64,000 bases of DNA. It comes from Spizellomyces punctatus DAOM BR117 (lineage: Eukaryota). How positions within the stretch are numbered: position 1 is the stretch's first letter; the number at the start of each line of letters is the position of its first letter. Location of the stretch: assembly GCA_000182565.2 (NCBI GenBank), contig KQ257460.1. One strand, written 5' to 3'. Below, one piece after another: positions 14,801 through 60,524 of the stretch. Made by a program: the position numbers and the translations under genes. The notes under the pieces were generated by a model. It worked only from the letters and a program-made list of their open reading frames with translations. It searched no databases and was not told where the DNA came from.

Positions 14801-17800
14801 CTGCTCTTGATGAGCGAGATGCGAGACGTCTCGAGTTGCTAAGGCGGCAACCCGAAGCAATGCAAAAGTACGCCAGCCAGTTGCTTCCAATCATGATTGA
14901 AGTTTTTGGTGCAACGGTGAATGCCAACTTGCGACGCAAGGTTGTGGAATGTGTTGCCAAAGGTATTTGGTACCTTGACCAACCAGAATTCCTGGCACAC
15001 GCTTTGGCGAAAAATCAAGTGTTTGGAAAGTTTGTATCGGAGCTTCTGAGTCTCAGAGAGATTGCATTTCGAAAATCTGTACCGGACAAGGAGCGCAAGG
15101 AGGCTTTGGTGCTAGTGGCTGGAGGTGTACAGATTGCGCTTGTTGTTATGAATAGGTGTGGGGAAAAGTTCAAAGCTTGGTTTGCCCGCGAGGGGACTAT
15201 GGAGGAGCTGGTTAAAATTGTTGCAATGAATGACTTGGAGAAGGAGAAGGAAGTGGAGAAGAAAGATGAAAGCCCGGTACAAAGCCCTGTGCGTACGGAG
15301 ACGCCTTCAACGCACTTGCCAACTCCAATGGGACGACGCTTGAGTGACCTGGTCAAGGATTTAAAGAGATTGAGAGACCAAGTTGCGGGACATATTGGTA
15401 CGTCGTCGACTGGCACAGCGTCCAGCGAAGCGAGTTCATCAGCGGTTGGTCCCGCTGCAGATAAGCATTCTGAGGTGGAGGAACTGCTGGAAACGGTAGA
15501 AGCGCTAGCAAAGGGCAGCGGCGAGGGCACTGGAATGGACGAGCGCGGCGACACAACTCAGAAAAGCCACTCTTCATCCTCGTTAAGGATTGATACCGGG
15601 CGAAAGGATAGTACCTCAACCGCAGGCGGGGATGCTGAGGCAGCATCGGAGATGTCAGAATCGGGGGCGTCAGTGGCGTCGCCGACATCACCTGGATCCT
15701 CTCTTCTCCATGGAATGCGAAGTATGTTGGAGCGTTTGGGACGTGGATCGCATTCTACGACTTCTGCAAGCAGACGGCAGATTTCAACTGCAGGAAGCGT
15801 TATCGGATTGAACGGAGAGAGAGTTGCAGAAACAGAAATGCGGTCCTGGATTGTTGCCGAATGCAAGAGTATCCTCGAAGTCTGTCCTGCCACTCCCATG
15901 TCTTCTGAGAAGGCTGGACTAGTACTTGAGGACTTAAGACGTTTGGGAGCCATCCTTCGAGGTCACGCTACAGTGGATGGAGACGATCCCCTTATGCTCA
16001 GTGTGCTGCACGCAATTGCCGAGCATTTCGCTGGCAGAAAGGACACAGACACAGAGGTTGGGGTCACAGGATATGAGATGCTGGAAAGCGGTGTGATGGA
16101 TGCTATGGCAGACTTTTTGACCAAACCAGGCATTCCAGATGTGGCTGCGCCAGACCCGGATGCTGAAAAACCGAGATACACGCTACCCTTGACCGCTCGT
16201 TTGAAAGCATTTTTGCATGTTTTCATGAATGGTCCGACTCCTGACCCACAGAACCGCCCGTTCTTTGTCCAGGGGGCTTTTAAGCGGCTCGTACAGAGAC
16301 TACAAGAGTCGCTTTCCCGTGTGGAACGGTTTGAGGTTGCTGCTGCAGTACCCTCTTCTACGGGTTTCTCGTATGAGCCGATATTTGGATCCATGTTTGG
16401 GGCTTCTGGGGGGCACCTTAGGGAAGCATCAAACCCCAGCATGCAGCTCACCCGACAACTAAAAGTGAAACTTATGGCCGCGGAGCCAGATACGGTCCCA
16501 AGACAATATCAGGCGCTTTTGATTAGCGTCCACGCTGTTGCTACATACAAAGCCCTTGAAGATTACTTGAAAGGCCGGGTTGCGATGGCTCCACAGCCGA
16601 CAGCTACGCGAGGTGCTACTGAGGCGACAAAGGATGGTCAAGAAGTAGGGGCGGAAGTGTCAGAGAACACGCCAGAAACTCCCTCCCGGACGGTGGATGA
16701 ACAAGGCGATATAGAGATGGGAGACGCTGCGATTACGAGCGCGGACGCTCAAGTAAGTGCTGGGGACGATGAGGCTGATATCGAGGATGAGGACATGGAG
16801 GATGAATTTGACGATGATGATGATGATGACTTGGACGACGATGTAAGTTATCCTGGTAGTGGTGTCTATGCGATGCTGCTCATGTACAATGATTGCGGAC
16901 TTGTTGGCTCATCTGGATACTGCACACACGCAGATGTTGAATGTCAGCGATCTCTTACTTCATTCAGAAGAAGCGAGACGCCGGCGACGTCGTGGCGAGA
17001 GCTTCACAAGTCAGGCTAGCGCCGTATCGGACGGCCATAGTGAAGATACAGCGAACCAACCTGATCTGAGCGGTCGGCGTGATAGCGTAGTAGATGTCCG
17101 GGCCGATATGCCCTCGCAGACAAACACGACAGCTCCGACTCCAGCCTCCCCGAATATCCCCTCGAGCACCTCGAGCACGCCTGCATCTGCGCCTACCTCC
17201 TCCTTGTCCTCGACACCGTCTGCTGCCTCTACGACTGGAACTTCAACCGCAACTGCCGGCAGATCGTACGCTTCTGCCGCTGCATCTTCGACGAATTTTA
17301 CGATTGAATTTTCAGTAGGAAATATAGTCGTTCCTCGTGATACTACAATTTTTGGATCTGTGTACAAATTGGAGCAGCAAAAACTTGGGACTACTGGTGC
17401 ACCGCCCAATGTCTGGGGTCAAGTTTATACGGTAAAGTACCGAAAAGTCTATCCAGAAGCCAAAGAGGAGGGCGTGAAGGAGGAGGTACAAACGACTAGA
17501 AATGGGTCTGCAGATAGGCAGATGGCAGTCAAGCTACCTTTTCCTACTATGATGCCTGAAGGTATCTCGTTGGATACATCTCCCGGCAAAATCCTCTACC
17601 TTCTACGACTTTTGTATGGGCTAAATTCTCGATGGGCTGAGGTGTATGCTAACGAGGACGCCGAGCTCGATGGAGTACACGAAGGTGGGACATCGGCGTT
17701 ACCCTTGCAGGAGGGCTCGCAACCTATGACACGAGTTGCCGTGACATCAAGAACCGATGCGCCTGTCAGCATCGACATGCTTCCTCCTGCGGCTTTTGCC

Positions 17801-19529
17801 AACACAAAGTTGACTGCTAAGCTCAATCGGCAACTTGATGAGCCCTTAATTGTTGCCTCCCATGTTCTTCCATCATGGTGTTCATCGCTGGCCAAAGACT
17901 TTTCCTTCTTGGTTCCGTTTGAAACGCGCCTAGTGTATCTTCAAAGTACGTCTTTTGGATACTCTCGTAGCATGGGTCGCTGGCAGCAACAACAACAACA
18001 GGGCAATGGTGGGAGCGGGTCTGGTACTGGTCGCGGCAGTGCCGATGGAGCGTCACATCTTGGACGAATTCAGCGCCAAAAGGTCCGAATCGCCCGACAG
18101 CGGATCTTGGACAGCATGATTAAAGTTATGGAATTGTATGGATCTACTCAAGCTTTGTTGGAGGTGGAATTCTTTGATGAAGTTGGAACCGGGCTAGGTC
18201 CAACCCTTGAATTTTATGCCAATGTCTGTCGGGATTTGAGAAAGAAGGATGGTATTGCTTTTGGATCTGGCGAAAAGATCAAGATTTGGAGGGACGATGA
18301 TTCGCTAGATTCACAGGCGGTCAAGGATGATAATCGCAGCACAAAAGCTGGTCTTGTGCCCGATGATTACCTAAACCCCGCTCTCGGATTCTTCCCGGCT
18401 CCACTCACACCAGCAGAGGTGGATACGGAGAAGGGAAGAAAAATTTTGATGCTGTACAAGGCTTTGGGAACCTTTGTGGCAAAGGCTCTGTTGGATTCGA
18501 GGATCGTGGATATACCTTTCAGTGCAATGTTTTTGGAGATGGTTGTGGGTGAAGAAGAAGAGGAGGAGAGTGCTGCTGAGGCCGCCCTAGGGACTGCGGG
18601 GCGTAAGGGTGCCGAGTTCCATCTGTTAAGAGTAGGTTTAATATGTGTGCGCGGTTCATCTGGCTTTGCGTGTCTCGTTCTAACAATGCCATTGCAGCAT
18701 GTGGACCCATCTTTGTACAAGTCACTTTTGGATTTGAAAAAGTACGTCCACATCAAACGGAGCCTCGAGGCTGATCCGACCCTTAGTCCAGCAGAACGCG
18801 CTGCTCGTATCTCCAATATTACGGTGAAGGGTGCCCGTTTGGAGGATCTTTTCCTTGACTTTACTTTACCAGGCTACCCTTCCGCGGAACTGATTCCTAA
18901 CGGGAAAGATATAGCGCTGACATTGGACAACCTGGAACACTACATTGACCGTGTGGTAGAGATGACTGTGGGCGAGGGCGTTCAGAGACAGGTCGAAGCG
19001 TTTAGAAGAGGATTTGACCGTGTTTTTCCAGCTGCGGATTTGAGGAGCTTCACAGTGCAAGAGTTGGCGGTCTTGGTTGGAGGAGCAGAAGAGGAGGATT
19101 GGGCGTATGATGGTGAGTTTGAGCCCCTCTTGCTGGAATTTTTCCTTGTATCCCGAATAATAACAATTTTTCGTGCTTGCAGTCCTTATAGACTCTATCA
19201 AAGCCGACCACGGATACAATTCGGACTCGCGCACTATCAAACACCTCGCTACCTTTATGTCTACCCTCAACCCTATTCAACGCCGCGAATTCCTCCAGTT
19301 TGTCACTGGCAGTCCAAAGCTCCCCCTTGGCGGATTCAAGGCTCTCAACCCGTCCCTCACCGTCGTTCGCAAAAATGTGGAAGCGGGCAAGAAACCTGAT
19401 GATTACCTCCCCAGTGTTATGACCTGCGTCAATTACCTCAAAGTACCCGATTACAGTGAATTGGAGGTGATGAAGATGAGGTTTGAGGTTGCTGTGCGTG
19501 AAGGTCAAGGTTGCTTCCATTTGTCATGA
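11879..19529 (+). CDS. UFD4: HECT E3 ubiquitin ligase, Ufd4/TRIP12 family
   Basis: ARM region (ALQELSEVLSMATED; ELMLLACRCLSNLIEA; EYIDLAEQ; IDFFSLHVQRTAL), KLTAKLNRQLDEPL, LEVEFFDEVGTGLGPTLEFY, catalytic LPSVMTCVNYLKVPDY and C-terminal FHLS. Frame-restoring introns e.g. 13935..14002, 16843..16933, 18632..18697, 19113..19182. Confidence 0.95.
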
Positions 19530-31541: not shown

Positions 31542-32767
31542 ATGGAAGGCACACATAGACCCCTCGCTGTCCCATTTCACATTGCAGCAGCAGCGGCTTC
31601 GATGCCAATGACATCGCCCTCCGCTCGGCAGATGGCTGCTTGGATGACACGCGCGCGAGGGCGGTGGGAGGAGCTACATGTGCCAAAGTTCAAGAGACAC
31701 AGTGCTTTGGCGGATTTGGTGTTTGGATCGGCGGCGGGTCTGACGAGCAAGTTGGTTGAGCATCCATTTGATACCATCAAAGGTGCGTTTCCAGACATAA
31801 AGTAACGTTGGTTTGGGCAAAAGTCTGACCGCAGTTCTTTTGTGGTAAATTATAGTGCGTCTTCAGACTCAACCCGTTGGAGGAGGAGCACGTATGTATG
31901 CAGGTTCATTGGATTGCCTGCGAAAAACCATTGCTGGCGATGGTCCAGCTGGCCTGTTTCGCGGAATCGCTCCACCTGTAAGTGCCAAGTTATCGTCTCC
32001 CTCGATCAGTCATTATCTAATATCAGTGGTCAACGCTATGACAATAGTTGGTCGGATCCATGTTGGAACACGCTGTTCTCTTCTCCGCCTATGTCGGATT
32101 TAAGCCTGTTGTGCACTCTGTTCTCGCGGGCGATCCAGTTTCCAGCGCCGACGGCAATTACACGTACACAGATATTGCAGTCTCGGGCGCGTTAGCAGGG
32201 GTCTTTGCATCCTTCGTCCTGACACCACTGGAACTTATCAAATGCAAGCAGCAAGTGTCAGAATCTCCCTCATCCAGCGGTCCTGCCACGTCCCGATCGA
32301 GTATTGCCATTGCCCTCGAAACACTAAAGAAGAATGGTATATCCGGTCTTTTCCGAGGCCAGACTGGTACTCTCCTTCGCGAGATGGCCGGGGGTGCTGC
32401 CTGGTTCGGAATCTATGAAATCGCTTGCAACACTTTTGCCTCCAACACGCGCAAGAGAGAAGAGTTAAAGCCTTGGGAGCTGATGCTTTCCGGTTCTCTT
32501 GCTGGAATCGGCTACAATTCTGCCTTGTTCCCAGCGGATGTCGTCAAGAGCATTCAACAGACTGAAGAGGAGATGGCTCGCTTGAACAGCACGTTAGGGA
32601 CAGCCGTGCGACGACGAGCTTTTATGGACGTTGCGAAAGGGTTGTATCATGGAGAAGGTATCAAGGGGTTTTATAGAGGCTTTGGTGTTACCCTTTGCCG
32701 GTCCGTCCCGGGCAGCGCAATTATTGTGGCAACCTATGAGCTCATGTCAAAATACTGTGCCGAGTAG
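31542..32767 (+). CDS. Mitochondrial carrier (SLC25), ornithine/basic amino-acid carrier-like
   Basis: Three carrier signatures PFDTIK|VRLQ, PLELIKCKQQ, PADVVKSIQQ; LLREMAGGAAWF; two introns. Start uncertain. Confidence 0.9.
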
Positions 32768-38134: not shown

Positions 38135-39247
38135 TGTTTACAGGTGTGTTTGCCTTATTTAATTCTGTTTTTTATTATGATGCTAATATAACCCTCCCTA
38201 TTCAAGTGACACTATCTGAAATACCAATCTACGAACTTTTTGCCTTGAGGATACAAGTGGACATTAGAATCTAGATGTTACCTTTCACATTCTGTTAAAT
38301 CTAAAATGTCAACTATAAGTTCCTTGATTCGCTCTACCTTCCCATCACTGTCCTCTTTTCAAAAATGGCATCTGTTAAACATCCATTTGAAGCGCCATAC
38401 ACACAGCATCACAGTACCAGCTTACAAAAAACCGGCCACCGAACCTTCTTCCGAAAGGACACATCCCCACACCCGGCAGCGAGGTACACTCTGACTGAAT
38501 TACAACGTACTATCATCTAATCGGATCTTTTGGCCAAAAAAATTCAAGCTGGAAGGAAGGAACTAGCTGCCACGTTGTATCAAAAAAGTCAACAGCTTCT
38601 CGTCACCACCCAAAAAATGTAGTTGTTAAACTGACTTTAGTGCAAGTCAGAGTCGTCGGTGCTCTGCCTAATATCTCCCGACCGACACTGACACAGTTTC
38701 ATCATATTGGACAGCGAGTCGAAAGCCAAATCATGCTTATAAAGTCATGGAAAAGAGCTTGTTCATCGTCGCCTGATGCGGGATCCTGATGCAACCAACA
38801 TCGGCGACCCGTGTTACTTCTCAAACCCCCATGTAATTTATTGTTGAAGCGGTGCGGATATTCCTCGCATCCTACACCATCTTGAGGTGACATGTACAGG
38901 ATCGTACCTGCTTACTGCGATAAGGCCCAGCATCTTGGTCAATTGTCGCAAGGCCGAGCGAGAGCCATCAGGCAACGAATTGCATTCAGCCAAAAATCCA
39001 GAGTACTTGGACCGCCGTGAGGGTAGTCAGTAAGGTCATCCACCTTGCAAACATCTGCGGCGTCATTCAACAGGGTATGACTGCAGAATCCACCTTGATA
39101 GTATAGTGAGATGCGGCAAAGATACGGCTTGCAAAATAAGAGGGATCAATTCATTTTATTGATAAATAAACATCAGCGTAGGCAGGGTAATTCTATAATT
39201 CAAACAGAGAACAACGGTGGTCGGCCACACTAAATATGTCCACACAA

Positions 39248-42200
39248 CTAATATACTTCAAGGATGTATCGCTCCTCTTCCTTCAACGCCTCCAATAATT
39301 CCGTCGCCTCAGCCTTGGTCATCTCACTCTCAAACGCCTTCACAAGCGCATCTCTCACGTCCGGCACGGGCCAAGTAGGTCCACAAAGGTAGAAAGCACC
39401 CTTTTCCTTCAACATCAATCGACCGAGCAACTCAGTGTCCTCTGTAATCTTGTGCTGAATGTACACCTTTTGTTTCTGGTCACGAGAGAAAGCGAGACGC
39501 AAGTATGTCAAAAGCCCATCCGCGTGATAGGCTTCCATTTCCTCGCCGTACAGATATTCCATTGCACGGTGGCGCGATCCAAAGTAGAGGACCATTGGAC
39601 CAACTTTCTTGCCCTGCGCCTTCCAGTAGGCACGTTCTTCAATGAAAGCACGGAAGGGCGCCATACCCGTTCCGAGACCCGACATGATCACGGGTTGGGT
39701 GAGTGATGGAGGAAGCTTCATAACGGATGGCTTGATGGTGACTGTAAGGGTTTGTCCAATGGCTGCATCGACAAGGTACCGGGTACATTGACCGAATCGC
39801 TCTTTGCCGGACTTGGTACGCCAGTCAACGAGAACAACTAGAAGGTGTACACTGTCAGGGTGCATGCTTTGCGCGGACGAGATCGAGTAGTGACGTGGTT
39901 TGATAGCGGGAATAAGATTCACAAGGTCTTCAACAGGTGGGTGGCAGGAGTCAAATTTGACTAACAAGTCGGCGTAGGTGGGCGTTTCATTGTCCGTAAA
40001 CTTCTGCATGGCGTCCGCATCCGAAAGAAGATTGTGAATCTCCTCGTGTTGCTTAGGGTCTTTGGTGTATCCTAGCATTGCCTGGTAGAATTTTCGACCA
40101 GGCTTACCAAAAACGTCCAAAACCTGCGTGAACATTTGCGCAATGGTGCGAACTTCCGATGTGCTTTCACCGTCAGCCGTCTTGCGGTCAACGTACACAA
40201 CGTCCAGAGGGTTGACACCATAAAATTTAAGGAAACGTTCCACTTCAGCAACATCATTATGTCCATGAACTCCCAAGGCTTCTCCAATGGCATACTTGAG
40301 CCCAGTCCCCTTGATATCCATTTCAATGTGGAAAACATTCCTGTCGTAGGTATCAGGGGTGACACGACGATTCTCTGTCACCTTGATTTGATAGGCACCT
40401 TCGATATCCGGACGGAGTTTCTTCTCCACCTTGTAAGCTTCAGGAAAGATGACGGGCCAAATGGCGGCATGGCTTTTAACAACACGCGCCGTAGTTTCCT
40501 CCTCTTCTTCGACCAGGGGCAATTTTGCAAATGGTAGAGAGTTAGCGACCAGGTTGGGAAGGGAAGCCTTCGCCTCAGGGGTCGGAATATTTTTCAGGGT
40601 GACGTGCTGAATCTTGCTCAATGCCCGCTGGATGGCACCGAGCTTCGTCACGATAACACTGCGATCCGTCTCTGACTGAGTGACGTGCTCACCCAAACGC
40701 CTGAGAGTAGCAGGGAAGTCGATACCCGGAGCAACCTTCAGGAAGACCGCCTGGAGAATCAACTTCACATACTCGGTGTGAACACCCTTGAATAGCGTGA
40801 AATCCTTGGCGATGCCGTTGGCGTCGACAGTTAGCACGTCAATCTTGCGTCGAGAAATCTCACTTTTGATCACATCCGGAACTTCTTTGGCTAGATCATC
40901 GCCGGCGAGGTGAGTGTTCAAGACTAGGGAGCCACCATGCTTCACGCTCTGGGCGACGTTATAACGTTGAAGCAGCGACAAATCATGGACAGCAGCATAG
41001 TCTGCCGAGTGAATGAGATGGGGCGCCGTGACATTCGAAGTGCCATAACGAAGATAAGTGACGCTAGCAGGATCAATCTGAGTATCATCATGGGCGGTGT
41101 AACTCTGAACCGCCACCTGAGGGCCATGCTCCATATCGGCAACAATCTCGGTGCTAACTGCTGAGGTGTGCGACTCCTGAAGATCCCAAAATACCGCTTG
41201 AGAAACACCTTCTGCAACATAACGTGCATCTGCCTCAGGCTCCACTGTCTTGCTTTCAAGGACAAAGTCAAAGATTGGGTTGGGGGACGCTGCGTTCCGA
41301 AAGAGTTCTTCGACAGCTGCGGGATGGAAATTCTGAATGCCAGCAGCGAAGTGCCCGTTGATGATCGCAGGTATACGGCCTGACCAATGACCTGTGTAGA
41401 AGCAAGCTGTGACATCGAGGAACAAGGGCCCATGTCCACTTCCGGCTTTGCCAGATTGATCGATGACCGCCAATCTCTTGACACTCTTGGGAAGGGCGTT
41501 GACGAAGTGTACGGCAGACCATGGACGGAGCAAGCGGATGTTAAGAACACCCACTTTAGCACCCTGGTGATTCAAGCGTGTGGCAGCCTCCTGAGCGAGT
41601 GCCGCAGCCGGACCCATCGTGACAACTACGGTCTCAGCATCGGGAGCTCCGCTGTATTCAAAGAGCTTGTATCGACGACCAAAAGCGTGTTCGAGTTTGT
41701 TCATTGCGTCCTCCACAGCATGCACAAGGTCCCGACTGTCTGCAGGCACTTGTGCAACATGTTCAAGGTCCTTGTATTCAATGACCTTAGCCTTCACAGT
41801 TTCCCTCGCAATCCGGGCACCATCGAAGAAGTGTAGAATTGGCGTTTTGGCCGAGTCTGCCGCAACATGAGCAACGATGGCGAGATCATGAGCTTCTTGA
41901 ACGCTTGCAGAGTTCAAGAGACCAAATCCAGTGTAGGAGGCAGCGATGATGTTGGAGTAATCCGTGATAACAGAGAACTCGTTCGTGATACTTTGGGCAG
42001 CAACGTGAAATACGACTGGTTGACGTGCGTGGGCAATTTGATACATGGAGGGAATCATCAATGGAAGAGCTTCAGAGGAAACAACCGCTGTGACCTTTGC
42101 ACCAGTAGAGATTGCTCCGTGAACCGCGCTCGCTGCTCCAGAACGCGTGCTCATCGTGGCCACCTTGTGCGATTGTCCATATGCATTTGCGACGGCGTGA

Positions 42201-43903
42201 TCAGCCCAAGTTATCATCTCTTCACCAACGTATCCCGACGTCGCAACAGGGTAGATGAATGATAGGTCGGTCAAGCCGTACGCCACATGAGATGCGGCTG
42301 TGTGGCCATTAATGCATTTGACAGTTCCAATGCGTTCGGACGCTACGGCTTTTTTCTCGGTGATAGCAGAGTACGCAGAGAACGGTTTGGCCTCGGTGCT
42401 AGGCCGCGACACAGGAACTGACGTGACCTGGGAAGTTTTGGCGACGTGCTGCAAAGGTTGTGCTCTATCGAGCTGGACCACCCGCCCAATAATCAAAGTT
42501 GCCAAACCGACGAAGTTTGCTTTCCGCGCTAGTGCGGCGATCGTGGAAACAGTAGCCTTCAGGGTCGAATTCCCCTGGGCAACGGCAACAGGAAGGTCTT
42601 CTGGATAACCATTCTGCAACAGCACCGCTGCTACATTCTGCAGATGCGCTGTGTCCACTGAGGCTACAACCGTTGCTGAGCTACGGTAGGTTGGGTACGC
42701 ATGCGATCCCGATTTCACCAATACAATGTTATCAGCAACTCCCTCAGCTGTCAGCGATATTCCGGTAAGAGATGGCACGGCAAATGCAGACGACATCCCA
42801 GGCATGATTTGCGCTTCGAAACCATTTCGACGGAAAAAGCCAACTTCGTCTGCTGCCCCACCGAACACGAGTGCATCACCAGACACCAAGCGTACAACGT
42901 CATTTCCGCGCTTGAGGGAAATCAATGCAACTTCCTCCAATTGTGCCTCCAAAGCCGAGCGTTTGTTGGTTGGCGTCAATACGATAAGCTGACCGGTTAC
43001 AACTTCAAGGATATCTTGGGACACGTCAGGGTCAGCTACAACGACATCAGCGGAGTTGATGGCATTGTATGCTGCTCTCGTCAACAACTCTACATCACCC
43101 GTTCCCGCACTGACAAAGCGTAGAACACCGCTGCGAACTTTGTAGGGAGCTACCTGTTCACCGCCTTCTTCATAGATCTTTGCAATTCGCTCAATTTCCT
43201 CATTCGTGAGCTCCGCAAGTTTATCAAATGGCCAGGTCTCGGAGATGCGAGTGATAAAGCTCATACGACGCGCGGCGGCTGAAGGATCCGCGGCCCGCAG
43301 ACGCTGTCGCAACACACTGAGACGCTGAATTGCAAGTCCAGCATTTGGTGGAAGCGAGTTCGCGACGTAACGTCTAAGCTTGCCAGCGAGATGTGGTCCA
43401 TTGCCGTTTGTTGAAACGGCAACCTGTAGGGCATGATCACGGTATGTTGACATGAACCAAAAGTCCGATACCTCTGGGGCGTCGGCTACGTTAACGGGAA
43501 CCTTCCTTTGTTTTGAAAGAGCGGCAACGTGTCTCGACCCCTGTGCATTCTCCCATGCTACCAACACCATAGACTTCCCCTCCAAATCCCTCTCTACGAA
43601 ATCTCGGTTAAACCAGGTCAATTCTCCTCTATTGACGCGAGCCCGCAAAGACCCAGACAAGCTGCTCTCTGGTGCGACGAGAGTGACATATGCGTCTGCT
43701 TCAAGGGCGAAAAAAGCTCGTTGAGCGGCTACATCGTTTCCACCAACCACTAGCACATTCCTAGAGGTAAGACAATCAATAAAATGTCCATTCGTCCTTG
43801 AACCACAAAGACATGTCCCATACCTTCCAGCAATACTCCATGCGAGGATAAGGGAAGCCCCGCCGCGCGCGACGGGAGCAGCTTCTTCAGCTGTGAGAAC
43901 CAT
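39248..43903 (-). CDS. Fusion protein: CysG-type siroheme synthase (Met8-like dehydrogenase/chelatase + SUMT-like methyltransferase) joined to a Met10-type sulfite reductase alpha flavoprotein
   Basis: Single 1551-codon ORF with a probable in-frame 63-nt intron 43823..43761. Met8 motifs VLVVGG, PVNVAD..DF, QVAVSTNGNGP; TP-methylase AGTGDVELLT, VVRL..GD..VFG, PGMSSA; PFOR-like GHTAASHVAY..FIYP; FAD/NADPH module IKPRHYSISS, GLGTGMAPFRAF, AFSRDQ..KVYIQH, YLCGP, terminal YILEVY. Confidence 0.92.
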   Translation of the reverse strand: MVLTAEEAAPVARGGASLILAWSIAGRYGTCLCGSRTNGHFIDCLTSRNVLVVGGNDVAAQRAFFALEADAYVTLVAPESSLSGSLRARVNRGELTWFNRDFVERDLEGKSMVLVAWENAQGSRHVAALSKQRKVPVNVADAPEVSDFWFMSTYRDHALQVAVSTNGNGPHLAGKLRRYVANSLPPNAGLAIQRLSVLRQRLRAADPSAAARRMSFITRISETWPFDKLAELTNEEIERIAKIYEEGGEQVAPYKVRSGVLRFVSAGTGDVELLTRAAYNAINSADVVVADPDVSQDILEVVTGQLIVLTPTNKRSALEAQLEEVALISLKRGNDVVRLVSGDALVFGGAADEVGFFRRNGFEAQIMPGMSSAFAVPSLTGISLTAEGVADNIVLVKSGSHAYPTYRSSATVVASVDTAHLQNVAAVLLQNGYPEDLPVAVAQGNSTLKATVSTIAALARKANFVGLATLIIGRVVQLDRAQPLQHVAKTSQVTSVPVSRPSTEAKPFSAYSAITEKKAVASERIGTVKCINGHTAASHVAYGLTDLSFIYPVATSGYVGEEMITWADHAVANAYGQSHKVATMSTRSGAASAVHGAISTGAKVTAVVSSEALPLMIPSMYQIAHARQPVVFHVAAQSITNEFSVITDYSNIIAASYTGFGLLNSASVQEAHDLAIVAHVAADSAKTPILHFFDGARIARETVKAKVIEYKDLEHVAQVPADSRDLVHAVEDAMNKLEHAFGRRYKLFEYSGAPDAETVVVTMGPAAALAQEAATRLNHQGAKVGVLNIRLLRPWSAVHFVNALPKSVKRLAVIDQSGKAGSGHGPLFLDVTACFYTGHWSGRIPAIINGHFAAGIQNFHPAAVEELFRNAASPNPIFDFVLESKTVEPEADARYVAEGVSQAVFWDLQESHTSAVSTEIVADMEHGPQVAVQSYTAHDDTQIDPASVTYLRYGTSNVTAPHLIHSADYAAVHDLSLLQRYNVAQSVKHGGSLVLNTHLAGDDLAKEVPDVIKSEISRRKIDVLTVDANGIAKDFTLFKGVHTEYVKLILQAVFLKVAPGIDFPATLRRLGEHVTQSETDRSVIVTKLGAIQRALSKIQHVTLKNIPTPEAKASLPNLVANSLPFAKLPLVEEEEETTARVVKSHAAIWPVIFPEAYKVEKKLRPDIEGAYQIKVTENRRVTPDTYDRNVFHIEMDIKGTGLKYAIGEALGVHGHNDVAEVERFLKFYGVNPLDVVYVDRKTADGESTSEVRTIAQMFTQVLDVFGKPGRKFYQAMLGYTKDPKQHEEIHNLLSDADAMQKFTDNETPTYADLLVKFDSCHPPVEDLVNLIPAIKPRHYSISSAQSMHPDSVHLLVVLVDWRTKSGKERFGQCTRYLVDAAIGQTLTVTIKPSVMKLPPSLTQPVIMSGLGTGMAPFRAFIEERAYWKAQGKKVGPMVLYFGSRHRAMEYLYGEEMEAYHADGLLTYLRLAFSRDQKQKVYIQHKITEDTELLGRLMLKEKGAFYLCGPTWPVPDVRDALVKAFESEMTKAEATELLEALKEEERYILEVY

Positions 43904-57619: not shown

Positions 57620-60524
57620 ATGGCGACCGAAGCCATGGACCCTGCCGATCCTAATTCAGGCGTCTCACGTTCGTTAACCATAACCGGCCAAAAGAGCGAC
57701 GGAATGGTGGAAAAATTGAAAGCGAAAGCCTCGATGCCGCTATTGACTCGAAGTCAGAGTGAACTCGGTGATGTTCGCCATCGAGAGGGCTCAGAGAGTA
57801 ATGGGCTTTACTTGGAAGCTTCTTCTTTGGAAAGACGCTTTTCCGGCAAGGTGTTGGATTTTTTATTCAAGAAGAACGCAAAGGCAAAAACAATCGATGC
57901 TGGGTATGGCCGTAGGGTGGACGTGACTGTTGGAGACGCTGATGTTACCAAAAACAGAGGACCTAGTGCTGATGATGAAGATCGGCAGAGTTTACGAAGT
58001 GTCAAAAGTAACAGCAGTCTAAAAAGCTTGGCTGAAGGGAAGAAAGGCTTGTTCAACTTTCGAACCAAGAAGAGCAAACAAAAGAAGAGCTTGGATATCA
58101 CACCTTCCATCTCTGCTATCTCTTTAGTGACCCCTTCCGATGGCGAAAAAGAAGCATGGCTTCCATCTCCTCCAGTTGTATGTGACACTTTGTTACTGTG
58201 CCCACAAGTGCTCTCAATCTCATATCCCTGTTTCCCAGGCATCTACTACATCGAACCCATCACAATCATTGATTCCAGAATCGGAACCATCCATTTCAAC
58301 CGAACGTTCTCAACCAGTTACAATATCGAGTCCTTCATCTTCTCTTCACCTGCCTACCATATCTCCTGTTTCAGGTTCTTGGTCCTGGGTATCAGCGGAA
58401 AGCCAAACCCACCCTGGGCAGACCGATATCAGGGAGCTTCGCATTAGTCCGAGAGCCTCCAGTCTGAAGTTATTAGAGAAGCTTGCCAGTACGTCAATAC
58501 CTCATCCTGAAAAGCAGGAAACAAGCGCCGTACTTCCAAATGGATGGTCAGCAGCAAAGAAAGGTGACGAAAGTGGCAAAGACATTAGTCCAGTTGACGG
58601 CCCGAGTTTGCGAGATGGGCAGGAACAAGGCAAAGAAGAAAAGCCAGAACCAGCTGACCGTGCCGACGACGATGAACTTAAACGGAAATCTACAGCTCGC
58701 AGCAATAGGTCAACGCTTTCAGACGGCACTCCGGTGGTTCCTGATGTCCTCTCCCCGCCAAAGAAGCCCGTCGTAAGCCGAGCTGGTGCGACAATTGAAA
58801 CCGACGATCCATCTCATCTCTTCTGGGTTCCTGCCCATCTACATCCGGAGCTCCACCCGAACGATTTCAAAAAATGGCTGAACAATGCTGATGCAGGGCC
58901 TACCGACTCCACAGTCTTTCAGATCGGTAAAAAGCCCCTGAGACGATCGAAATCCTTTGTTGAACGACATGTGGTTATTACCCCTGATAACGTAGAGGAA
59001 TTTGTGGAAAAAGATAATATCGTGCGGAGTCGGACGGTGTCAGGAGCGCAGTATCAGCGCGGCGGTAAGGGTCTACCACCATTGAGACGAAGTCGAAATA
59101 TCCGGCCGAAACGTCCCACTATGCGTAGTATGCAAGAAAGCGCAAACAGTACCGCAGACTCAGACTCTGGGCCTGACTATGCAGACGGAACCTCAAAGGA
59201 ATCTGGACCGGTTAGAAGACGGTCAAGAAGAAAAGCAGATCGAAGTTCGTCATCTGTTAGAAAAAAGAAGGCAGGAAATCGGAGGTCCAAGACTATCATT
59301 ATGGGACCAGTTGAAGAACGCTCTCTCACTGCACCCAGTGAAATCCCCATGGACCCTTCGGTATCTGCTTTGGAGAAGCAGGATACTGACAAGGTTTCCA
59401 CGTCCCACACATTTTCAACCCCAACTCCAGTTGAGTTACCCAAGCCACCCTTGGAGCTCAAAGTGGACGCCATTTTGGCTGGTGACGCTTATACTCACCC
59501 TGCATCCCCTGAGCCCAGCTTTCATTCGCCATCAGAGAGCATGACTCCCGACGACTTGGAGATTCTGGATGTTCCACAGGATGAGATGGCTTCTACAACC
59601 GAAGATACCGCCATTGGTGAAAAGCAAAAATCCAAGAAGAAGAAAGAGGGCAAAAGCTGGAATTGGTTGTCAGGCTTCCTTGGTAAAAAGAGCCCGGGTT
59701 CCACTAAGCACAAACGAGCAGCGTCACTGGAATCCAACGGAAGCAGTGCCGCCGAAGATGATACTTGGAACGCATATCCTAATGATCGTTTCAGCGATGC
59801 GGATGGAGCTCCGCGATTTTCGCCTGAAGTAGAGAAGCAAATCTACCGAATGTCGCACATCAAGTTGGCCCAACACCGCCGGCCATTGTCTCAACAAGTT
59901 CTCATCAGTAACCTCATGCTGTACATTCTATCTGTTCACGCCGATGTCACATTGAATCGACAAGGCCCGCGAAAGAGGGGACGGAAGGGAAGGAGGCGTG
60001 GTAAATCGCCCGGTGCCAGCAGCGATCGAAGCAGAAGTCCAGGGCGTGCCCTTCCCATACCACACCCCGCTACGGGACCTGTCGTCCAGCCGAATTCCAT
60101 CTTGGAAGCTCCAACGATGCCTCGCAGCGGACAGTACTTTCCTGGGGCTCCTGGTATTTCTAGTCTAACCGGTATACCGGGAGCAGCCAGCGGGGATTAC
60201 GTTACGGACGGAAGCCCAGCGCAAGGCTACTTTGGAAACGGAGGAGACTCGCACGGTAGCGAACGGCGACAGCGCAATCTAGCACATTTAGCAGTCATAA
60301 AAGCTGGGGGAATTGACAGCGGATCGGCAAGTTCTCTTGAACCTGCATGGGTAGATTCTGAGTATCTCAGTAGCGATCATGAAGGTGATCCCTCTCCAAG
60401 GTCGCGATCTTATTCCCCGGACCGAGCAACGGACTCTGAGGAAGAAGAGGACGAGGACGATGTACCGTTAGGAATGTTGCAGCAACATAGACGAGGCAGT
60501 ATCAGTAGTGTTTCTAGTCACTGA
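57620..60524 (+). CDS. ZDS1: Zds1-like protein (PP2A-Cdc55 regulator, Zds_C domain)
   Basis: DPSHLFWVPAHLHPELHPNDFKKWL and Zds_C motif EKQIYRMSHIKLAQHRRPLSQQVLISNLMLYIL; intron 58178..58238 joins the two long ORFs in frame. Confidence 0.85.

Follow-up and report, generated by a model that had tools for sequence, protein, structure and literature searches.

CysG-type siroheme synthases and Met8p are described as homodimers, and the substitution D104A leaves CysG inactive (PMC7018833, which is also the source for the roles of the CysG residues discussed here). For NirE, proposed roles in substrate binding and proton abstraction have been ascribed to R111 and R149, and the E114Q variant loses 84% of its activity (PMC4731766). 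It is not settled how eukaryotes deliver siroheme to their sulfite and nitrite reductases. Here, we describe a gene of the chytrid Spizellomyces punctatus DAOM BR117 in which a module of CysG type is joined to a sulfite reductase subunit. It lies in a stretch of 64,000 nucleotides of contig KQ257460.1 (assembly GCA_000182565.2), the whole of which is called the window below. Judged by its predicted product, the gene is a Met10-type alpha (flavoprotein) subunit of the assimilatory NADPH-sulfite reductase, fused to an N-terminal CysG-derived module. On balance, this module is probably a diverged paralog of CysG and not the cell's siroheme synthase, and would act as a tetrapyrrole-binding accessory module, possibly as a chelatase.

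The gene is contained in a single minus-strand open reading frame (ORF) of 1551 codons from ATG to stop (39248..43903), which the original prediction had taken to be uninterrupted. All 1551 codons are indeed open, but an in-frame intron of 63 nucleotides lies inside, and the true protein has 1530 amino acids. Homology search and alignment identified it as the annotated S. punctatus DAOM BR117 protein P0002, named 'siroheme synthase domain-containing protein' in the database, which equals the ORF product minus 21 residues; the gap corresponds to a GT..AG intron, the only one of the gene (Table 1). Since this intron happens to keep the frame and to be free of stop codons, the ORF stays open throughout, and a raw ORF scan adds 21 spurious residues to the Met8-like domain. 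In the following, Pfam domain coordinates refer to the read-through ORF, whereas key residues such as D120 are numbered as in P0002. The Pfam scan agreed with the order of domains proposed originally (Met8-like, SUMT-like, PFOR-like and FAD/NADPH modules in one ORF) at closely similar coordinates: NAD_binding_7 (residues 45-150, E 6e-22), Sirohm_synth_M (158-178), Sirohm_synth_C (185-247), TP_methylase (262-448, E 9e-30, 104.7 bits against a cut-off of 27.8), POR_N (541-716), PFOR_II (756-838), POR (922-1065), FAD_binding_1 (1170-1376, E 5e-57) and NAD_binding_1 (1411-1510). An ORF of this length with nine Pfam matches over threshold is far beyond chance.

The C-terminal ~1,000 residues comprise the last five of these domains, all of them over their cut-offs, and no flavodoxin family is found by Pfam in the ORF product at E<=0.01. 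The cysJ profile is matched in its C-terminal half (profile positions 235-597), and the matches listed include proteins annotated as 'sulfite reductase (NADPH) flavoprotein alpha-component', which share 40-44% identity with it across 66% of the query; Spizellomyces is represented by one protein among the best 120 Met10-type proteins. In all, this part is an ordinary flavoprotein of the Met10 type, with FAD and NADPH domains, the motifs RHYSISS and GLGTGMAPF and an aromatic residue at its end. In the PFOR-like part, neither a thiamine pyrophosphate-binding nor a ferredoxin domain was detected; because its matches are confined to PFOR domains I-III, this part is itself the scaffold of a former enzyme, and a single polypeptide holds two decayed enzyme modules, one PFOR-like and one CysG-like.

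Between the two parts lies a linker (residues 479-535 of the read-through ORF), which contains neither a stop codon nor a Met; the next Met, M563, is already situated inside POR_N, and the Met10 part has no start codon of its own, as had been stated originally. BLAST of the linker sequence finds no match in any ortholog. Transcript data bear on this region in two ways. The 3'-biased RNA library X9 gives a sole peak at 39088-39475 (depth 131-273), with 26 reads that carry a T-run loose end near 39137 as a poly(A) signature; its depth is zero over 41998-43161, and therefore the linker holds no transcript end. The run X8, which has no library record, is regarded as RNA-derived because one of its contigs (record 17) carries a spliced junction: it stops at 43762 with a loose end of 11 letters that, when reverse-complemented, gives the last bases of exon 1. 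A further X8 contig (42226-42567) crosses the whole linker at a depth of 10.3, close to that of the neighbouring pieces. Altogether, contigs of three runs cross the linker with zero differences; those of X3 and X4 were not counted as transcript evidence, their kind (RNA or DNA) being unrecorded and X4 also including the unspliced intron. The data thus support an mRNA that is continuous across the linker, although a single molecule cannot be proven from contigs, and they are in line with the single polypeptide for which a check by RNA had been suggested. Over the whole gene, X8 differs from the window at one position only (40274, T in X8 and C in the window, depth 11.4), which may reflect strain variation.

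Conservation in the CysG-like module was assessed in an alignment that combined fused sequences, 27 from chytrids and 12 others, with 15 stand-alone enzymes, of which four are bacterial CysG and 11 come from fungi or holozoans. Among the stand-alone enzymes, 16 columns of the Met8 part and 34 of the SUMT part are invariant, although one of these 34 is an artefact of the alignment edge. In S. punctatus, the Met8-like half retains 15 of its 16 columns. The counterparts of the catalytic Asp of CysG (D104, here D120) and of its Pro platform (P133, here P149) are both present, and D104, A105, P106 and P133 are conserved relative to CysG. The glycine turn VGGGxVA reads VGGNDVA. All 27 fused chytrid sequences lack a GGG turn, which is found in 13 of the 15 stand-alone enzymes and in eight of nine further Met8/CysG proteins, the ninth being P0152 of Polychytrium, which groups with the fused clade. 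From what is generally known of Rossmann folds, we infer that the GGN turn entails a loss of dehydrogenase activity. Within the fused clade (27 sequences), S143, T144, G146, P149, R156, R178 and R192, whose columns line the tetrapyrrole site, are conserved to at least 93%. The position of the catalytic Asp is more variable: ten of these 27 sequences have Asp, one has Glu (Gaertneriomyces), 15 have another residue and one has a gap; outside the chytrids, all seven copies from Glomeromycota have Glu at this position, and Basidiobolus has Lys or Asn. S. punctatus and its close relatives retain the Asp.

The SUMT-like half has fared differently, with 20 of the 34 invariant columns retained and 13 of the 33 meaningful ones lost. 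The loop for S-adenosylmethionine (SAM), canonically GAGPGDP, reads SAGTGDV, the PxTHR motif has become SLTAE (THR to TAE), and RLVSGDALVFGGAADE stands where canonical SUMT has RLKxGDPFxFGRGGEE, GDALVFGGAADE being the counterpart of GDPFxFGRGGEE. When NirE residues are mapped through the PDB chain (constant offset of 5), R111 is replaced by Gly, E114 by Asp and R149 by Glu. The half scores 108.8 bits against the SUMT equivalog TIGR01469 (cut-off 185), and the whole module 216 bits against the CysG equivalog NF007922 (cut-off 400). Residues 28-510 were modelled with AlphaFold2 at a mean predicted local distance difference test score (pLDDT) of 84, with both halves mostly above 90 (the SUMT-like one at about 90); residues 458-510 fall below 50, the linker reaches 30-40, and the linker is predicted to be disordered. 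The top Foldseek matches of the model are CysG chains (E 8e-30 for 1pjs), and SUMT structures align with its second half at template modelling scores of 0.69-0.75 relative to the target. The confidence of the model and these matches argue that the SUMT-like half is a folded domain and not junk; with its SAM and substrate residues lost, it nevertheless most likely is catalytically dead, and its methyltransferase activity would be gone.

To see how far the fusion extends, the S. punctatus segments were compared by BLAST with the best 120 Met10-type proteins out of 537 found at E<=0.001 (8000 candidates scored). Met8-like and SUMT-like parts are both present in 30 of the 120, the named ones all belonging to Chytridiomycota; 21 have the Met8-like part alone (Glomeromycota, Basidiobolus and Rhizophydiales-type chytrids), three have a SUMT-like remnant alone and probably are N-terminally truncated gene models, and 66 have no such front end (Mucoromycota, Mortierellomycota, ichthyosporeans). 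At least part of the CysG-like module is therefore found in 54 of the 120. A full CysG-Met10 fusion also occurs in the blastocladiomycete Paraphysoderma sedebokerense (P0326, 1377 amino acids), where the decay is reversed: the SUMT motifs are canonical, whereas in the Met8 part GGG is replaced by GAN, the catalytic Asp by Asn and the Pro of the platform by Gln. Based on the survey and on Paraphysoderma, the fusion is widespread in early-diverging fungi. Most of the double-domain copies are shorter than that of S. punctatus; the distance between the Met8 and PFOR parts is just 159-212 residues in 24 of the 30, and BLAST covers the first ~120 of 228 SUMT positions. These 24 have therefore lost one half of the SUMT fold, and a full-length SUMT-like domain is found in just six of the 30, S. 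punctatus included. Between S. punctatus and Rhizophlyctis, identity amounts to 66% in the Met8 part, 39% in the SUMT part, 55% in the PFOR part and 73% in the FNR part. In Basidiobolus, the module is reduced to ~110 residues, and Rhizophydiales copies are 25-28% identical. Polychytrium aggregatum has a 227-residue protein of the fused type (P0152, 'Met8, partial') and a partial Met10 of 1031 residues (P0024) on one contig, which probably represent one fused gene split by annotation.

The original prediction knew of no characterised example of this fusion and allowed for entries in databases, and both points stand: full-text literature searches found no published description of a CysG-Met10 or Met8-Met10 fusion, and the fusion is present in databases, where, with the 54 proteins just mentioned, the architecture is not rare. 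Sirohm_synth_M has been counted among the 'promiscuous' domains of fungi, the CysG-Met10 architecture going unnamed in the available part of that text (PMC4102429). The S. punctatus fusion is a variant, as yet uncharacterised, of an enzyme subunit that is itself known; it is conserved and already in public databases.

Stand-alone CysG-type proteins were sought by an exhaustive profile search with 33,581 matches, and 20 of the best 150 were assigned to named organisms. Among the matches listed, at least eight chytrids have such a protein, namely Thoreauomyces humboldtii (from the same order as S. punctatus), Zopfochytrium, Cladochytrium replicatum, C. tenue, Quaeritorhiza, Phlyctochytrium planicorne, Irineochytrium and Gorgonomyces, and for seven of these eight the best 120 Met10-type proteins also include one with the fusion or a remnant of it. 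The six copies that were aligned (all except those of C. tenue and Irineochytrium) have all canonical motifs intact where sequence exists, the Gorgonomyces copy being without the Rossmann stretch. The idea that the fused copy is the only CysG of chytrids was considered and rejected: the best 120 of 2749 matches, on which it had been based, end at 672 bits, while the stand-alone chytrid copies, found by the exhaustive search, score 566 bits or less. Siroheme in S. punctatus would accordingly be expected to come from a separate canonical CysG gene, as in its sister chytrids. In Quaeritorhiza, the canonical CysG is part of a gene model (P0322, 2006 amino acids) that also includes Slo-like RCK and BK-channel domains and that most likely merges two genes.

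In a tree of the Met8 domain, the fused chytrid copies form one clade (support 100/99, 16 rows) and the stand-alone chytrid copies another (100/100, seven rows); fused and stand-alone copies of Glomeromycota are likewise separate (100/100 and 98/91). Because fused and stand-alone copies form separate clades, the fused module appears to be an old paralog. The backbone of the tree is a polytomy, and approximately unbiased (AU) tests gave no rejection of either of two groupings, one with all fused copies in one clade (p 0.355) and the other with every chytrid copy, whether fused or stand-alone, in one clade (p 0.37). The distribution may be explained by a single ancient fusion that later decayed differently by lineage. 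Extra stand-alone CysG paralogs with a GNN turn and otherwise canonical motifs are found in Basidiobolus (P0123, P0238) and Umbelopsis (P0158); they grouped with the fused clades in a quick tree, and the tree described above does not resolve their position.

How should the module then be understood? It is scarcely credible that an adjacent CysG-like gene and MET10 were joined here by an error of assembly or annotation, or are transcribed separately. The separately annotated halves of Polychytrium and the unconserved, predictedly disordered linker would suit such an artefact, but the frame is open over 4.6 kb with no further Met from the linker up to residue 563, the same fusion has been annotated independently in 29 other listed proteins, contigs of three runs, one of them RNA by its splice junction, span the linker without differences, and the 3'-tag RNA library has no transcript end in it. 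The original prediction went further and saw in the fusion an entire factory for the cofactor, linked to the complex that consumes it, that is, a fully active trifunctional siroheme synthase which channels siroheme to Met5 and fixes the stoichiometry. Every CysG domain is indeed present and in CysG order, the Met8 site still has its catalytic Asp, TP_methylase scores over the Pfam threshold, and no stand-alone CysG of S. punctatus is among the matches listed (best 120 of 2749), which missed the copies of other chytrids, too. Nevertheless, we regard full activity as very unlikely and that claim as not supported by the sequence: the lost SUMT columns include the equivalents of both NirE catalytic Arg residues and the SAM loops GxGxGD and GDP, the Rossmann GGG is GGN, both NCBIfam equivalog cut-offs are missed, most orthologs (24/30) have a truncated SUMT half, a minority of fused chytrid sequences (10/27) have the catalytic Asp, and seven chytrid species have a canonical CysG alongside the fusion. 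The proposed hand-off of siroheme may hold in a weaker form, with the Met8-like half as last-step chelatase or siroheme carrier.

At the other extreme, the module might be a purely structural relic, a domain for dimerisation or scaffolding that has neither tetrapyrrole nor catalysis, much like the PFOR-like former enzyme domains of Met10. The replacement of the catalytic Asp in 15 and its absence in one of the 27 fused chytrid sequences, as well as the Glu of Gaertneriomyces and of the seven Glomeromycota copies, would be in keeping with such a relic, and so would the progressive truncation by lineage (Basidiobolus, Rhizophydiales), the homodimeric state of CysG and Met8p and the reversed decay of Paraphysoderma, where an intact SUMT and a decayed Met8 part suit a role independent of chemistry. 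We nonetheless consider it rather unlikely, as the residues of the tetrapyrrole platform (the STNGNGP stretch, R156, R178 and R192), for which a pure scaffold would have no need, are among the best-conserved columns of the fused clade, and the Asp is retained in S. punctatus and its close relatives. The tetrapyrrole-binding accessory module is favoured because the columns of the tetrapyrrole site are the best conserved and the NAD and SAM sites are altered. Several observations weigh against it. The SUMT-like half is full length, is predicted to fold with high confidence, exceeds the Pfam threshold and is 37-41% identical between genera, suggesting that some constraint, of whatever nature, acts on its sequence. 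Basidiobolus P0123 and Umbelopsis P0158, stand-alone paralogs that are canonical otherwise, read GNN instead of GGG, so that loss of the third Gly may leave function intact, and the Met8-like half, which retains the catalytic Asp and all but one of its 16 invariant columns, may be a working enzyme. Moreover, a stand-alone CysG of S. punctatus is postulated from its relatives; if the species had none, the fused module would have to be active.

The N-terminal part descends from a CysG-type siroheme synthase and forms one polypeptide with Met10, its Met8-like half keeping the tetrapyrrole pocket and the catalytic Asp with an altered NAD-binding turn. As an accessory module, it would bind sirohydrochlorin or siroheme at the reductase and serve either as an Fe-chelatase for the last step or, towards the Met5 hemoprotein, as a carrier or sensor of the cofactor; the S. 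punctatus module, in which the Asp is kept, may still insert iron into sirohydrochlorin. Probably, the module would also dimerise the alpha subunit, as CysG and Met8p do. A more specific scenario, which we put forward tentatively and consider doubtful as a whole, is that the Met8-like half is a siroheme insertase or carrier, a former biosynthetic enzyme that holds sirohydrochlorin or siroheme and loads Met5 or reports its loading, and that the fusion arose close to the root of Fungi (Blastocladiomycota, Chytridiomycota, Glomeromycota and the Basidiobolus remnant) and decayed differently in each lineage. If true, a tetrapyrrole-binding domain permanently attached to the reductase across a branch of the fungi would provide a natural handle on siroheme delivery. 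The locus also offers a clean case in which a biosynthetic enzyme, once fused, has turned into a pseudoenzyme domain, with halves that decay differently by phylum and an intact paralog for comparison. Caution should be exercised in annotation, as the domain names on CysG-Met10 proteins do not justify the assignment of 'siroheme synthase' activity.

The coordinates of the features are collected in Table 1. Within the 64-kb window, no link to sulfur or tetrapyrrole metabolism was seen in the neighbouring ORFs, six of ten matching no family; the others carry PAS, HECT, mitochondrial-carrier and Zds_C domains (852-1871, 16847-19399, 32048-32767 and 58131-60524 (+)).

Table 1 Features of the CysG-Met10 gene of S. 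punctatus, with positions in the window
Feature	Coordinates	Strand	Evidence
Exon 1: start codon, residues 1-27, conserved GGASLILAWSI opening the Met8-like domain	43824..43903	-	Identical to P0002
Intron, 63 nt, GT..AG	43761..43823	-	Gap relative to P0002, sequence, spliced X8 junction
Met8-like domain; G33-G34-N35 replaces GGG; D120 = CysG D104; T144 = S128; P149 = P133	43163..43760	-	Pfam, alignment, pLDDT, Foldseek to CysG
SUMT-like TP_methylase domain, full length, predicted folded, motifs degenerate	42470..43120	-	Pfam, TIGR01469 score, invariant columns, NirE mapping, pLDDT
Linker of ~57 residues, predicted disordered	42299..42469	-	ORF translation, BLAST against orthologs, pLDDT, X8 contig
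PFOR-like domains of Met10 type: POR_N, PFOR_II, POR	40709..42283	-	Pfam
FAD_binding_1 and NAD_binding_1, CysJ/CPR-type FAD/NADPH reductase, C-terminus ...LEVY	39374..40396	-	Pfam and profile matches
Stop codon (39248-39250) and 3' untranslated region (~110 nt) ending at the poly(A) site	39137..39250	-	X9 3'-tag peak, T-run loose ends

Compared with known systems, the C-terminal 1,000 residues of the S. punctatus protein share the architecture of the fungal Met10-type alpha subunit, including the absence of a flavodoxin domain, and the difference lies in the ~510 CysG-derived residues at the N-terminus, which the listed Mucoromycota and ichthyosporean proteins do not have; yeast Met10 is likewise not known to carry them. 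The module itself has the order of parts and the fold of Salmonella/E. coli CysG (1pjq, 1pjs), with a phmmer E of 2e-32 over CysG residues 15-447, but R260, R261 and D262 of CysG are not conserved, GGG is replaced by GGN, the SAM and substrate motifs are degenerate, and CysG stands without a reductase whereas the module is fused to one. The stand-alone CysG proteins of early-diverging fungi (Thoreauomyces P0317, Coemansia, Rhizophagus P0243) are homologous to the whole module at 35-43% identity and fall with the fused copies into one eukaryotic clade relative to bacterial CysG; they keep all invariant motifs, while the fused copies form separate clades. A fused copy of a pathway enzyme in the same sulfur pathway is also known from fungal ATP sulfurylase, in which the C-terminal domain resembling adenosine 5'-phosphosulfate (APS) kinase is described as regulatory and not catalytic (PMC2275785); the domains are different ones, and a comparable regulatory role of the CysG-like module is conjectural.

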